A stretch of 64,000 nucleotides of DNA from NCBI GenBank assembly GCA_963833095.1, contig CAWHWQ010000005.1:320001-384000 (forward strand). Direction: 5' to 3'. Source of the stretch: Vulcanimicrobiota bacterium. Lineage in GTDB: Bacteria; Vulcanimicrobiota; Vulcanimicrobiia; Vulcanimicrobiales; Vulcanimicrobiaceae. A model generated the notes under the pieces. It was given only the letters and a program-made list of their open reading frames with translations, did not search any database and had not been told where the DNA came from. The translations under genes were made by a program, and so were the position numbers. This document shows positions 2,198 through 22,972 of this stretch, piece after piece (the first letter of the stretch is position 1; every line of letters starts with the position of its first letter).

Positions 2198-3691
2198 CTA
2201 AAGGCTCAGGTCGCTCGCCCCTAGCGCGTAGTAGTACTGCTGTTCGGCCAGACGCTCGCCATAGAGTCCGGCGACGTAGTCGCGCTGCGCGGTCGCGAGG
2301 TTTGCTTCGGCGATCACGATTGCGGTGATCGTCGACGCACCCACCTTATATTGTGCCTGCGTGGCTTGGAGGCTCACCGTAGCGCTGGTCACCTCGGCTT
2401 GCGCCTGCACCAGCGTGGCCCGCGCCGAGATCAGATTGGCGAGGCCGCCGCGTACGTCGGACTGCACTTGCAGTCGCTCCGCAGTCAATGCGGCGCTGCC
2501 TTCATCGAGTGTCGCGGCTGCGACGGCGACGTTGTAATTGGTCTGCCCCTGATCGTAGATCGGGATGCTCAAGGTGGCGCCGATCGACTGCGGCGTCGAA
2601 TAAGGCAGCGACGCGTTCTCGCCGCTGATGATGGTCCGGCTCTTGCCGGCGCTGGCGTCGGCGGTCAGTGACGGGAAGCGCGCAAGCTTGGCAAAGCGCA
2701 GATTCTCTTTATCCGCTTCGACCGTATGCTCCGCCGCAATAAAATCGGGACGAAGCGTAAAAGCTTGCTGAAGCGATTGCGCGTAACTCAGCACTTTGGC
2801 CTGGGCCGGCGACGCTGCAAGCAATTGTGGATTGATCTGCGTATCCGCGTCGAGTCCGAGCGCCGTCGTGAACGTCGCTTGGGCTGCAATCGCCAGGCCT
2901 TGCGCGGTGATGAGTACTCCGCGCGCCTGCGCGGTCTGAAATTGCGCTGCAGCTAGATCGGAACGAGGCGCGGCCCCGGTACGAATCTGCGCTTCGACGT
3001 ACTGCTCGTTGATCTCGAATTCGCGCACCAGCGCGGCGTCCGAAGCAACCGATGCGTTGTCCTCGAGGAGCGTGTAGTAGTCGGTCGCGACCGTGAACGC
3101 GAGGAGTTGTAGTTGGCGTAAGAGCGTGTCGCGGCCCGCAAAGTCGGCTTCTTTCGCGCTTCGAATGCCCGCGACCGTACGTCCGCCGTCAAAGATCAAC
3201 TCGCTGATCGTTATCTGAGCCGAGAGCGACGTGCTTGTCGCGCCGTTCGGCGCCGTCGTGCTGCCCGGTGCGGCCGTCGCCCCGTTGTTATTGCCACCGC
3301 CGATCGATCCGAACGAGCGATTAGCGGAGGCATTTGCCGAAACGGCTGGGAGCAGCGCGCCCTGTTCGGCGCCGTACCGTGCGGCGATGGCGCGGTATTG
3401 CGCGCGCTCGGAAGAAAACGTCGGCGATTGCGCCACGGCAATGTCGATGGCTTGGTTCAACGTCACCGACATCGGAATGCCCGGCTTCGCGATTTGCGCC
3501 GCGACATCGGGTGCGGGCGATCCGTACGCCGGATAGGGAATCGGCGTACCCGACATGGTTGGCATAGGAGCAGGCGTTGGAACGGCGATCGGCGCTTGCG
3601 ACGGCGCTGCGCCGACCGCAAGCGGCGCGCACAAACCCAGCGCGAGGGCAACCGGCAGCGATCGCGCCATAAAACGGCGAGCAGAGGTCAT
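2198..3691 (-). CDS. TolC family outer membrane efflux protein
   Basis: Signal peptide, two OEP repeats (LLPAVSANAS, LSIPIYDQG, QYKVGAST). Confidence 0.9.
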   Translation of the reverse strand: MTSARRFMARSLPVALALGLCAPLAVGAAPSQAPIAVPTPAPMPTMSGTPIPYPAYGSPAPDVAAQIAKPGIPMSVTLNQAIDIAVAQSPTFSSERAQYRAIAARYGAEQGALLPAVSANASANRSFGSIGGGNNNGATAAPGSTTAPNGATSTSLSAQITISELIFDGGRTVAGIRSAKEADFAGRDTLLRQLQLLAFTVATDYYTLLEDNASVASDAALVREFEINEQYVEAQIRTGAAPRSDLAAAQFQTAQARGVLITAQGLAIAAQATFTTALGLDADTQINPQLLAASPAQAKVLSYAQSLQQAFTLRPDFIAAEHTVEADKENLRFAKLARFPSLTADASAGKSRTIISGENASLPYSTPQSIGATLSIPIYDQGQTNYNVAVAAATLDEGSAALTAERLQVQSDVRGGLANLISARATLVQAQAEVTSATVSLQATQAQYKVGASTITAIVIAEANLATAQRDYVAGLYGERLAEQQYYYALGASDLSL

Positions 3692-20061: not shown

Positions 20062-20643
20062 ATGGACGACTTTAAGCGTTATCTCGACGCCCTGCATCCT
20101 GAGCAACACCCGTTGCTGCTCGAGCTGGAGCAGCATGGCCGCAAAGACGGCGTTCACGATCGTCTCGCGCGAGGCCGGACGCCTTCTCTCGGTCGTCGTC
20201 CACATGATGCAGGCTAATCGCATTTTAGAAATCGGCACCGGCTACGGCTATTCCACGCTCTGGATGGCGCTGGCGCAGCCGCCGATGGGCAAGATTTGGA
20301 CGATCGATCCCGATAGCGAACGAACGACATCGCCAACTCCTACTTCCGCCGCGCAGGTGAAGACGACTACATTACGATCTTCAACCAGGATGCGCTCGAG
20401 CTGCTCGAAAATTTTCAGCAGCGCAACCTCGATATCGTCTTCATCGACGCCGATCGTCACCTATATCGCGCGTATCTCGATTTGGTTATCCCAATGCTCA
20501 AGCTTTCCGGCATCGTCGTCGTCGACGATTGTCTCATCGGCGAGCTCGACGAGTTCAACGAATATTTCCTGTCGCATCCGGATCTCGACGCGACCATTCT
20601 TCCGCTTGGTAACGGAACCGGTATCGGAGCGCGTATCAAGTGA
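20062..20643 (+). CDS. O-methyltransferase (caffeoyl-CoA/YrrM-like); apparent frameshifts near 20155 and 20325
   Basis: MDDFKRYLDALHP..., ILEIGTGYGYSTLW, DIVFIDAD, GIVVVDD, ILPLGNG. Confidence 0.85.
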
Positions 20644-21174
20644 ACGCCCGCGCGGCCGATCCGGCCGCGTTCAGAACGGCGATGCGACGCCATCCATCGG
20701 GCGTCACCGTCGTGACATCGCTAAGGGAGGGCGAGCCGCGCGGCATTACGCTGAGCGCGTTTGCGAGCGTCTCGACAGACCCGCCGATGCTTCTGATCTG
20801 CGTGAACCGCAAGGCCCGCTCGTATTTGTATATCTGCGAGCTCGCGGATCTTCTGCGTCAACCTCCTTGCCGTGGAGCAGCGTGAACTCGCCGAGCGCTT
20901 CTCCGGCCGCATCAAGGAACATCAGTTCGACGACATTGCGTGGTCGACCGATGTAACCGGGGCGCCGGTGCTTGCCGGAACAATCGGACATTTCGATTGC
21001 GTGGTGGAGGCCGAACACCACGCCGGGTCGCACTCGATCCTCATCGGCAAGGTGCTCGCGTGCTCGGCGCGCGAGGGCGCACCGCTAGGTTACTACGAAG
21101 GCGCCTTCCGCGACTTCCATCTGCGAGCAAACGATGATCGTCGAGACCTTCCCCGTTGGCTTGCTGGCCTGTAA
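20640..21174 (+). CDS. Flavin reductase family protein; apparent frameshift near 20835, 3' end uncertain
   Basis: FRTAMRRHPSGVTVVT, SVSTDPPMLL, GAPVL, AGSHSILIG, PLGYY. Confidence 0.85.
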
Positions 21175-21769
21175 CGCGACGATCGTCGGCGACGAGGAGA
21201 CGCGCGACGCGATCGTCATCGACGGCGGCGACGGCGTCGATGACGTTCTCACACGGCTCAAGCAGCTCGGATTACGTGCGCGTTACCTTGTGCACACCCA
21301 CGCTCACTTCGATCATATTGCGGATGTCGGGCGTCTGCGCGAAGCCACGCGCGCTCTGGCATTACTCCACCACGATGACCTGCCGATCTATCACGACCAG
21401 CCGCGACTACTCAAACTGTTTGGGTTGCCGTCGATGCCACCCGTCGTGGCACTCGACGGCGACTTGGAAGACGGCTATCGAATGTCCATCGGTAAGGTCA
21501 CCTGCGACGTCTTGCATACGCCAGGACACACGCCGGGCAGCGTCTGCTTTGCCATCGAAGGCGGCGGTGCTACGCGACTCCTCACCGGTGACACGCTCTT
21601 TGCCGGCGCAATCGGACGTTGGGATTTGGGCGGCACGTCGATGGAAGACATCGTCGCGTCGATTCACCGCAAGCTGATGGACTATCCCGATGCGACGCCG
21701 GTCGTTCCGGGCCACGGCTCGTTCACGACGATCGGGCACGAACGCGCAAACAATCCGTACCTTCAGTAA
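21134..21769 (+). CDS. MBL-fold metallo-hydrolase (glyoxalase II/YcbL-like)
   Basis: THAHFDH, HTPGHTPG, TGDTLF, PGHG. Confidence 0.92.
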   Translation: MIVETFPVGLLACNATIVGDEETRDAIVIDGGDGVDDVLTRLKQLGLRARYLVHTHAHFDHIADVGRLREATRALALLHHDDLPIYHDQPRLLKLFGLPSMPPVVALDGDLEDGYRMSIGKVTCDVLHTPGHTPGSVCFAIEGGGATRLLTGDTLFAGAIGRWDLGGTSMEDIVASIHRKLMDYPDATPVVPGHGSFTTIGHERANNPYLQ

Positions 21770-22320
21770 GGCGCCTTGTTAACTCTCCATTTCTCGCAAA
21801 CAGTAGTGAAACGAATCCAATACAGCTTATCTTCAAGACGCTCGTGGGCGATGTACTTTCGGCCGAACCGGTAAAGCGTGAAGAAGCTTTGCTCAAGCTC
21901 GTGCCGCAGCATCTTGTCATCATAGACGCCTTTCAGCACCCCTGTAGCGATGTACTCACAATCGTCTAACTCGCCATCTAGTGCTTCATAAACGTCTCTG
22001 TCGCGTGGGACAGTGACATACTCACCGGGCGGTTCCAACACGGTTGTCTCGGGGTCATAAGAGTTGATTATGTCCCAGCGCCGGATGCTCTCGGTACTCA
22101 AGCCATACCGTTCTAAGAGCTTGAGCGTATGCTCAATCTCGTTGCTCCTCATCGTGTTGAGATTCGTAACCATCCATCCCGCCGCTACAAGCAATGAGCC
22201 GATGATCGGCGCCGCGTGCCAAATGTTACCAGGGTATCCCTCATATATGAGCCACCCCGATGCGACCAAACCGATCAACAGGATGAGCCCGCAAGCGAGC
22301 CGGAACGATAATCTTGACAT
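21763..22320 (-). CDS. DUF4760-like membrane-anchored protein
   Basis: Two N-terminal TMs; LDDCEYIATGVLKGVYDDKM...YWIRFTTVCEKW resembles the DUF4760 pattern (by eye); more A/T-ending codons than its neighbours. Confidence 0.65.
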   Translation of the reverse strand: MSRLSFRLACGLILLIGLVASGWLIYEGYPGNIWHAAPIIGSLLVAAGWMVTNLNTMRSNEIEHTLKLLERYGLSTESIRRWDIINSYDPETTVLEPPGEYVTVPRDRDVYEALDGELDDCEYIATGVLKGVYDDKMLRHELEQSFFTLYRFGRKYIAHERLEDKLYWIRFTTVCEKWRVNKAPY

Positions 22321-22325
22321 TGGAC

Positions 22326-22356
22326 AAAAGAAAAACCCCGCTACTTAGGCGGGGTT
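22326..22356 (-). terminator. Intrinsic terminator between the micropeptide ORF and the DUF4760-like gene
   Basis: Minus strand AACCCCGC-CTAAGTA-GCGGGGTT-TTTCTTTT. Confidence 0.8.
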
Positions 22357-22402
22357 AGTGTGCGGCTTTCCGTTTCTTGCCCTTGGCCTTGAGGTCTATC
22401 AT
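22355..22402 (-). CDS. Putative 15-aa lysine-rich micropeptide MIDLKAKGKKRKAAH
   Basis: Perfect SD AAGGAGGT 8 nt before ATG; TAA runs into the terminator stem; extended -10 TGaTAAGCT at 22435-22427. Confidence 0.7.
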   Translation of the reverse strand: MIDLKAKGKKRKAAH

Positions 22403-22489
22403 AGATTTTCACCTCCTTACCGGATCAGCTTATCACCTTTTCCTGAGACTCGGTACCTATCACGCCACAGCCTCGCAGCGGCAAGGCCT

Positions 22490-22972
22490 TTAGCGCAATG
22501 AAATGGTGAGTTTGCCGTCGGCAACCGCTTGCGGTGGCGAAGCTGCCGGACGCGAGGCTCGCGGCGCAGCTTCCATCGCACCGAAATCCGGCACGGCACC
22601 ACTTGCGACCTTGGCGCGGTAGTCGTCGATCGCGACCTTCAGCGCCTCGAGCGCTCGCTCGGGATAGTCTTTCTTCTTTTCAGGATAGCCCGAGAGTTCG
22701 GCTTCGACCTGCGCTGTCGTAATCGCGCCGGCTTCCTCGATCGTCTTGCCCTTGGCGAGTTCGACGACCAAGCTGCACGTAGCGGTCCCGAAGCCGCAAC
22801 CCGTGGTGAAATAGGAAATGTCCTCGATTACCGCGCCCGGCCCGACCTTCAAAAAAAAGTTGTACATGTCGCCACACGAGTCGCTGAAATATTCACCGCT
22901 CGCCGTCGGCGCATCCATCGTTTGGAATCCCGGGCGGGCTTCCACGAGCTGTTGAAACTTGGCAAAATCCAC
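22490..22972 (-). CDS. Divergent IscU/NifU-like Fe-S scaffold protein
   Basis: SCGD and TGCGFGTATCS motifs, KGKTIEEA. Confidence 0.8.
   Translation of the reverse strand: MDFAKFQQLVEARPGFQTMDAPTASGEYFSDSCGDMYNFFLKVGPGAVIEDISYFTTGCGFGTATCSLVVELAKGKTIEEAGAITTAQVEAELSGYPEKKKDYPERALEALKVAIDDYRAKVASGAVPDFGAMEAAPRASRPAASPPQAVADGKLTISLR

Follow-up and report, generated by a model that had tools for sequence, protein, structure and literature searches.

In a window of 64,000 nucleotides (nt) from a Vulcanimicrobiota bacterium (the whole stretch of DNA that was analysed: contig CAWHWQ010000005.1, positions 320,001 to 384,000), a short block on the minus strand carries a micro-gene of only 15 codons for a lysine-rich peptide, an intrinsic terminator, and the gene of a small membrane protein of the family DUF4760. 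Judging from its sequence and from that of its homologues, this block is very probably a self-contained, horizontally mobile module of two genes. Its anatomy, the conserved pairing of the two genes, the signs of coding constraint on the smaller one and the mobility of the whole are well supported. As to how such a pair might work, we put forward a mechanism resembling that of toxin-antitoxin (TA) systems, a proposal that we consider possible rather than probable.

The evidence that carries this reading comes from the subfamily of DUF4760 proteins with two N-terminal helices, to which the window protein belongs. In all 11 of the full-length loci of this subfamily that were examined (the window, L062=L068, L064, L065, L063=L069, L066, L070, L071, L072, L073 and L074), a basic open reading frame (ORF) of 8–25 codons, with a hairpin and U tract, lies at most 350 nt upstream of the DUF4760 gene; in each of them the hairpin behind the micro-ORF is rich in G+C and the tract rich in U. 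The 11 loci amount to eight different peptides and seven sequence types; since they are interrelated and for the most part belong to a single genus, it is the seven sequence types that count, and not eleven independent events. Left out were L075 (G190), a C-terminal fragment in which the hydrophobic N-terminus is missing, and L076 (G109), a one-helix locus counted as L036; L033, which is the site of L071, was dropped from the controls. The peptides, aligned by eye, are as follows:

Window: MIDLKAKGKKRKAAH
L062, L064 and L068: MERVDFKASNKGKKPKAKPKPKPKG
L065: MDRIDFKASNKGKKPKTKPKPKN
L063, L066 and L069: MIECRPKPGKPRGGKKPSR
L070 and L072: MVDFRGRGGRK
L071: MKVTWEVKPRR
L073: MTFGPKPRKPRRRR
L074: MTRDIKPR

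When a fixed rule was applied (an ORF of 6–30 codons, at least 30% lysine plus arginine, and a perfect-stem terminator within 70 nt), it recovered the micro-gene in 8 of 10 entries (L064 was not in the run), with L072 and L074 failing solely on the strict criterion for hairpin and T tract, while among the one-helix DUF4760 loci it recovered none in 29. A preliminary description of this DNA, made from the letters of the window, had suggested scanning upstream of homologues for a short basic ORF with a hairpin, and this same subfamily of DUF4760 proves always to have them; the pairing across the subfamily likewise lends support to its idea of an abundant small product accompanied by a weakly expressed membrane protein.

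Within the window, the block lies between the end of an iscU-like gene and that of a convergent gene for an MBL-fold protein, and is made up of the following features, whose coordinates refer to the minus strand unless noted:

22492–22490, minus: stop codon TAA of the iscU-like gene (NifU_N), from reading of the sequence and a Pfam scan
22484–22454, minus: alternative promoter-like stretch TTGCCG...TGATAGGTA (also given as TTGCCG ... GTGATAGGTA), a possible promoter in the flank common to genome G002
22435–22427, minus: candidate extended −10, string TGATAAGCT (TGaTAAGCT), inside the block; the leader would be about 18 nt
22418–22411, minus: Shine-Dalgarno (SD) sequence AAGGAGGT, with an 8-nt spacer before the ATG at 22402
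ATG 22402 to TAA 22357–22355, minus: micro-ORF of 15 codons plus stop, peptide MIDLKAKGKKRKAAH, net charge +5
22356–22334, minus: intrinsic terminator AACCCCGC-CTAAGTA-GCGGGGTT, 8 pairs of which 6 are G-C, loop of 7, T-rich tail TTTCTTTTGT (terminator scan)
22321..22335, minus: U tract TTTTTCTTTT and 5-nt spacer GTCCA, from the terminator to the DUF4760 ATG, as read in the sequence
ATG 22320 to 21763, minus: gene of the DUF4760 protein, 185 amino acids (PF15956); its stop overlaps that of the convergent MBL-fold gene
21766–22152, minus: cytosolic DUF4760 domain, residues 57–185, the C-domain used in the structural comparison
21770..22453, no strand: low-GC block of micro-gene, terminator and DUF4760 gene, 684 bp, between the MBL stop and the conserved iscU-like 3′ flank

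All the elements listed in the preliminary description, that is, the −10 string, the SD sequence, the ORF of 15 amino acids, the terminator, the U tract and the ATG, are present in the sequence. The SD sequence AAGGAGGT, which had been called perfect, exists in two copies in the window, and only the copy at 22418–22411 precedes a start codon; in the genome, on both strands, there are 25 such sites, 7 of them with an ATG or GTG 3–9 nt after. Small ORFs rich in lysine and arginine with a terminator-like site number 74 in the whole genome (5.6 Mb, both strands), and just one of the 74, the window micro-ORF, has an SD match of at least 6 bases; a second copy of the micro-gene with its N-terminal motif was not found in this genome. 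The terminator stem-loop has a folding energy of −11.3 kcal/mol, and the stop codon does enter it as had been said, by 2 nt, the last two bases of the TAA being the first two of the stem; this overlap is peculiar to the window copy, the hairpin beginning 23–36 nt after the micro-ORF stop in all the other loci. The terminator stands 13 nt before the ATG of the DUF4760 gene, and the 34 nt from the micro-ORF stop to that ATG are wholly hairpin and U tract, which leaves no room for a separate promoter. It had also been noticed that this ATG comes 5 nt past the U tract and has no SD sequence of its own, and both points hold: GTCCA is followed by the ATG at 22320, and no SD-like motif precedes it.

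The promoter of the micro-gene is not settled between two candidates. The extended −10 of the preliminary description stands as a string match at 22435–22427, but a consensus scan calls no sigma-70 promoter at the locus, and the second candidate, the stretch at 22484–22454, aligns with a GTG-n-TA-nn-AT element that precedes the micro-ORFs of other loci (invariant columns G33, T34, G35, A41 and T42).

That the block is an insertion particular to this lineage is indicated by both its composition and its distribution. The host genome is a metagenome-assembled genome of 2.8 Mb and 81% completeness, with a G+C fraction of 0.619 (standard deviation 0.03 in windows of 684 nt), against 0.518 in the block at 21770–22453, a value that low being found in 0.22% of 4098 genome windows; the impression that the block was richer in A+T than its flanks was therefore well founded. 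The window DUF4760 protein has no counterpart in 60 related genomes at E 0.001, and the best other match in related genomes to the 150-nt region of the micro-gene spans just 21 nt (E 0.015). At the syntenic site, the ORF, the hairpin and the DUF4760 gene are absent from 16 loci in 16 genomes of the same genus, the end of the MBL gene following the iscU-like gene almost directly in L006, L010, L012 and L019, and a different gene lying between the two in the other loci. The comparison of close relatives that the preliminary description had recommended thus finds the whole block missing, and the scenario that it had weighed against itself, in which the hairpin would simply be the terminator of the sufR-iscU transcript, fails on these 16 loci: with neither block nor hairpin there, the hairpin is not the ancestral terminator of that transcript.

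The edges of the insertion can be placed with some precision. Genome G002 matches the first ~38 nt after the iscU-like stop and then has another small gene, which puts the left edge near 22453, while on the right the insertion ends at the MBL stop codon (21769/21770). Among DNA contigs from four runs, those from soil metagenomes span both junctions and those of a related strain diverge at 21776; a repeat search of 21300–22900 found no convincing direct or inverted repeats flanking the block. The syntenic region of G002, the closest relative (L005, 1980–2300, corresponding to ~22490–22450 of the window) includes, in the shared flank of ~38 nt, a GTGATA-GGTA promoter-like element, and its replacement small gene encodes ~83 amino acids with a coiled coil and a C-terminal hydrophobic helix. 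The interval between the iscU-like and MBL genes looks like a hot spot of small insertions. A second dip in G+C (0.53–0.57), with a strongly negative GC skew, is found at 20200–20700 of the window, some 1.5 kb from the cassette.

The neighbourhoods of the module elsewhere also speak of mobility, since its neighbours differ by locus: rpoA-rplQ in L070, amidohydrolases and a TetR gene in L062, a TIR-domain gene in L063, and transposases of the IS1595 family in L073 and L074. In L074, inverted repeats of 36 nt (83% complementary, at 340–375 and 3087–3122) surround the transposase, the micro-ORF, the DUF4760 gene and one more ORF, an arrangement by which the module is to be taken as cargo of an IS1595-type transposon. 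The third passenger ORF of this IS1595-family element (L074, 340–3122) encodes a protein of 278 amino acids without a Pfam match, and a homologue with 40% identity is found behind the DUF4760 gene in L063. We rejected it as a conserved third gene of the module, for the homology is limited to L074 and L063, the other loci do not have the ORF, and it was not found in the genome of the window. The TIR-domain gene of L063 lies ~500 nt upstream of the module; a general link between DUF4760 and TIR was rejected as well, with a TIR gene beside one of the seven sequence types and none among the 131 ORFs at the 29 one-helix loci.

In some of the loci one of the two genes is damaged. In L062/L068 the DUF4760 gene has a TGA at codon 10 (TGC in L064), and in L070 it differs by a 1-nt indel from that of L072, the micro-ORF being intact in both cases; the damaged genes seen are DUF4760 genes only, with an intact micro-ORF beside them.

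Several observations argue that the micro-ORF is translated. A hydrophobic-[DE]-hydrophobic-[KR] motif is found near the N-terminus of six of the eight peptides; L074 retains only [DE]-hydrophobic-[KR] (Asp-Ile-Lys), L073 has none of it, and it is missing from all the remaining 73 background ORFs of the genome. Behind it comes a tail of lysine, arginine, proline and glycine, of variable length. SD matches of 4–8 bases precede six of the eight different micro-ORFs that were scored, with SD-like sequences discernible by eye in L074 and L072 (GGAGGGAG and AAAGGAG), and in L062, L064 and L065 the ATG of the micro-ORF lies 6 nt past a TG-extended −10-like element, which suggests that the mRNA is leaderless there. 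The changes between related loci point the same way. The micro-ORFs of L070 and L072 are identical in 35 of 36 positions, the sole change being synonymous, as compared with 51 of 60 and 43 of 60 in the flanks; those of L063 and L066 agree in 58 of 60, with one synonymous change and a change of stop codon from TAA to TAG, while indels abound in the 3′ flank; and L062 and L065 are separated by an in-frame indel of 6 nt, three synonymous changes and four amino-acid changes. A coding constraint on the micro-ORF is thereby suggested, in a form that, because the ORFs are so short, is not statistically strong.

The larger partner is a member of DUF4760, as had been presumed from its sequence: the hidden Markov model PF15956 finds it at E 3.1e-10 with 40.8 bits (gathering cut-off 25), over profile positions 9–141 of 141, and a six-frame search of the genome agrees. 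The other Pfam matches at E up to 0.1 are Phage_holin_2 (E 0.02) and DUF7541. The claim of two transmembrane segments stands in part. Residues ~4–28 are clearly hydrophobic, with a Kyte-Doolittle mean over 19 residues of up to 2.23, but the second helix (~35–55) is only moderately so, at ~1.2 by hand sum, and appears as the other arm of a hairpin in the AlphaFold2 model. That model (pLDDT 90.6) is all-helical and predicts a hairpin of helices 3–28 and 33–71 followed by a five-helix cytosolic domain, acidic in the window protein (net charge −7, pI 5.0) as in the subfamily, where the mean net charge is −5.9 (n=22).

Searches with this protein reveal little more of what it may do. Foldseek against the PDB and BFVD gave no match at E 0.001 or better, NCBIfam gave none, the best in PHROGs was at E 0.013 only, and the ESM Atlas confirmed DUF4760 and no more. 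In an exhaustive structural alignment of the C-domain model (pLDDT 92), the top three of 48161 chains are EP domains of the plant immune proteins PAD4 and EDS1 (Z 10.2, 9.8 and 8.0; root-mean-square deviation 3.3–3.8; 119–122 of 129 residues), values that for helical bundles are not decisive below a Z of ~13; next in line are GST C-terminal domains, from Z 7.1. We take the modelled resemblance to EP domains as a lead only.

DUF4760 as a whole is found in 260 of the 401 genomes of the phylum (Eremiobacterota), often in tandem arrays, nearly all of its members having a single N-terminal hydrophobic helix. The two-helix subfamily is far rarer: a search of 1.84 billion proteins yields 58 representatives, of which 24 fall below E 1e-10, and a profile of its seven closest members finds it in just 10 of the 401 genomes, 7 of these in one genus; in the genus of the window it is present in the genome of the window alone. 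Genomes flagged as unpublished enter into the tallies over the 401 genomes and supply the control locus L034, and they contribute no two-helix locus. As to the one-helix type, it is massively expanded (L035, L039, L042, L050 and L052 are examples), with up to 45 first-look candidates in one genome of 3 Mb, often in head-to-tail arrays of 3–5 copies, and is repeatedly found immediately behind a carboxyl-transferase gene (L038, L039, L044, L052, L054 and L056). The second DUF4760 of the window's own genome (G000, contig C2, 186665–187075; L003, 1453–2055), a weak match of 23.5 bits, below the cut-off, is likewise of the one-helix type and does not have the micro-ORF cassette.

Under the TA-like mechanism that we tentatively propose, the strongly expressed micro-gene, with its promoter, perfect SD sequence, 15 codons and terminator, would yield a tiny, highly cationic peptide, and the two-helix DUF4760 protein, having neither a promoter nor an SD sequence of its own, would be made solely from transcripts that read through the terminator, a dependence that would leave the cell with much peptide and little membrane protein. 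The peptide would act in trans on the acidic cytosolic domain, keeping the membrane protein inactive; the synthesis of this short-lived peptide would stop if the element were lost or if a phage shut off host expression, whereupon the membrane protein would be freed and would harm the membrane, according to the logic of TA and abortive-infection systems. The binding of peptide to protein, the toxicity and the trigger are what we infer here; the confinement of decay to the DUF4760 gene, next to an intact micro-ORF, is in line with this logic.

Several points weigh against this proposal. The loci on which it draws are related to one another and mostly from one genus, hence not independent. We know of no antitoxin as small as 8–25 residues. 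Three of the 22 subfamily members have a basic cytosolic domain and not an acidic one, and both broken DUF4760 genes belong to metagenome-assembled genomes and may owe their breaks to errors of assembly. The defence models of PADLOC-DB 2.0 gave no family at E up to 1, either for the window protein or for the second copy in its genome, and no homologues were found on plasmids or phages by tblastn or on viral contigs by a scan. Finally, the abundant one-helix relatives live in housekeeping neighbourhoods and tandem arrays and have no micro-gene, so that DUF4760 as such is not obviously a toxin.

The same anatomy might be read as that of a leader peptide acting in cis, in which translation of the micro-ORF would set the formation of the hairpin, and hence the read-through into the DUF4760 gene, with no role in trans for the peptide. 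The window by itself lends this some colour, given that stop codon and stem have 2 nt in common, that the DUF4760 gene has neither room for a promoter nor an SD sequence, and that the nearest match in Rfam is Trp_leader, an insignificant one (17.3 bits, where the gathering score is 41; E 4.2). In five of the seven sequence types, moreover, the order is the tandem one of micro-gene, terminator and DUF4760 gene, with a gap from stop to start of 34–102 nt that is largely terminator, and at these tandem loci the DUF4760 gene could hardly have a promoter of its own and would have to rely on read-through. In the other two types (L063/L066/L069 and L073), however, the micro-gene is on the opposite strand, starting ~50 nt from the DUF4760 start and ending in its own terminator with no gene behind, an arrangement that rules out attenuation in cis as the mechanism of the family at large and counts against the translation-sensing attenuator offered in the preliminary description. 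Outside the window, the 23–36 nt between stop and hairpin would put the hairpin out of reach of a terminating ribosome; the leader of the window folds only into the terminator and a weak SD hairpin, no competing structure standing out (z −1.13, with 29 of 200 shuffles folding equally well); and it is the sequence of the peptide that is conserved, not its position alone. What is conserved is the gene pair, and we regard a purely cis role for the micro-ORF as unlikely.

To about the same low degree, one may entertain a reversal of the roles, in which the peptide would be the active agent, a cationic binder of ribosomes, nucleic acids or membranes, with the DUF4760 protein serving it as immunity factor, receptor or exporter, in the manner of a bacteriocin with its immunity protein or of an inverted TA pair. 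The peptide gene comes first in many bacteriocin-immunity pairs, as it does here, where it also holds the strong expression signals; the tails are rich in lysine, arginine and proline (KPK, KPR, PKPRKPRRRR), and the evidence of the pairing serves this reading equally well. Against it, no genes for export or maturation are conserved beside the module, the 8–11 residues of the peptides of L074, L070 and L071 are very short for such an activity, and decay strikes the DUF4760 gene and not that of the peptide, which would be unexpected if DUF4760 were protective.

Still less can be said for a stand-alone micro-gene of polylysine type that happens to lie beside DUF4760, or for a product that is a small non-coding RNA, either of which we think very improbable. 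The unit does have its own terminator, but a coincidence sits badly with a co-occurrence in 11 of 11 full-length subfamily loci as against none of 29 control loci, across neighbourhoods that have nothing in common and with the micro-gene in either orientation, nor does the genome hold a second copy bearing the motif; and the spacing of the SD sequences and the synonymous and in-frame changes argue for translation. That the ORF is due to chance and the hairpin only the sufR-iscU terminator is scarcely credible, for although the hairpin is on the strand of the iscU-like gene, 134 nt past its stop codon, and would in practice end that transcript too, 16 syntenic loci of the genus have neither hairpin nor ORF, the block is a low-GC insertion, and homologous cassettes accompany the DUF4760 gene elsewhere.

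Among known systems, those of type III TA (ToxIN, AbiQ) have a comparable layout, compact and mobile, with a promoter, a small and abundant first product, an intrinsic terminator, and a weakly expressed second gene without a promoter; their first product is a tandem-repeat RNA, which is cut by and bound to the endoribonuclease toxin. Here too a terminator separates the first gene from the second (22356–22334) in a compact layout that seems to be mobile, but there are no repeats, the stretch 22330–22460 having only a chance match of 13 nt to the iscU-like gene; the second gene encodes a membrane-anchored DUF4760 protein, with no endoribonuclease of the ToxN or AbiQ type detected by Pfam (E up to 0.1) or PADLOC; and the first product is predicted to be a translated peptide of 8–25 residues, whose gene can be divergent. 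With no repeat array and no ToxN-like protein, the kinship to type III TA and ToxIN raised in the preliminary description falls away, and by its sequence the module is not a member of ToxIN.

The closest functional analogue of the proposed module would be SpoIISA/SpoIISB(C) of Bacillus, where, according to two reports (PMC4926146, PMC4526809), the toxin is bound to the membrane, has a domain in the cytosol and is held in check by a small cytosolic protein that binds it. There is no sequence relation, Pfam yielding DUF4760 for the protein of the window. The SpoIIS antitoxins, moreover, have ~45–56 residues and their genes lie downstream, whereas the small partner here would have 8–25, encoded upstream or divergently and with its own terminator. 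Attenuators like trpL (RF00513) share with the window copy a short ORF with an SD sequence just before a terminator and a downstream gene, as well as a stop codon that touches the stem, but the Rfam score is far below threshold, no antiterminator stands out in the fold, some loci have the ORF on the strand opposite to the DUF4760 gene, and its peptide has a conserved motif with a variable tail in place of runs of a single regulatory codon; at E up to 10, Rfam gave only matches at the level of chance.

We found no description of such a module in the literature searched, where the combination of Eremiobacterota and toxin-antitoxin yielded nothing related. DUF4760 itself appears there only as a row in the gene table of a genomic island (PMC9964261), and in that table the island, from Serratia, has a single DUF4760 gene (909 nt) between two hypothetical genes of 117 nt. 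In its most far-reaching form, the TA-like proposal would make of the pair a new class of abortive-infection or addiction element borne on IS1595-type transposons, with a peptide antitoxin of 8–25 residues that would be the smallest protein antitoxin known, and an effector combining a membrane hairpin with a bacterial counterpart of the EDS1/PAD4 EP domain as sensor of a small molecule, possibly the product of a TIR protein; this is a distant prospect, with little probability in its favour.

What the module offers is, in the first place, a handle on the family DUF4760, the first one, and together with it a clean case of an unannotated gene of 8–25 codons that is shown to be real by being strictly co-inherited with its partner. 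At less than 700 bp, the pair is small enough for direct testing in a laboratory host. If the peptide should be an antitoxin, or a regulator of a membrane effector, TA biology would extend far below the size limits of gene callers, and it would do so in a phylum that has no cultured model organisms.

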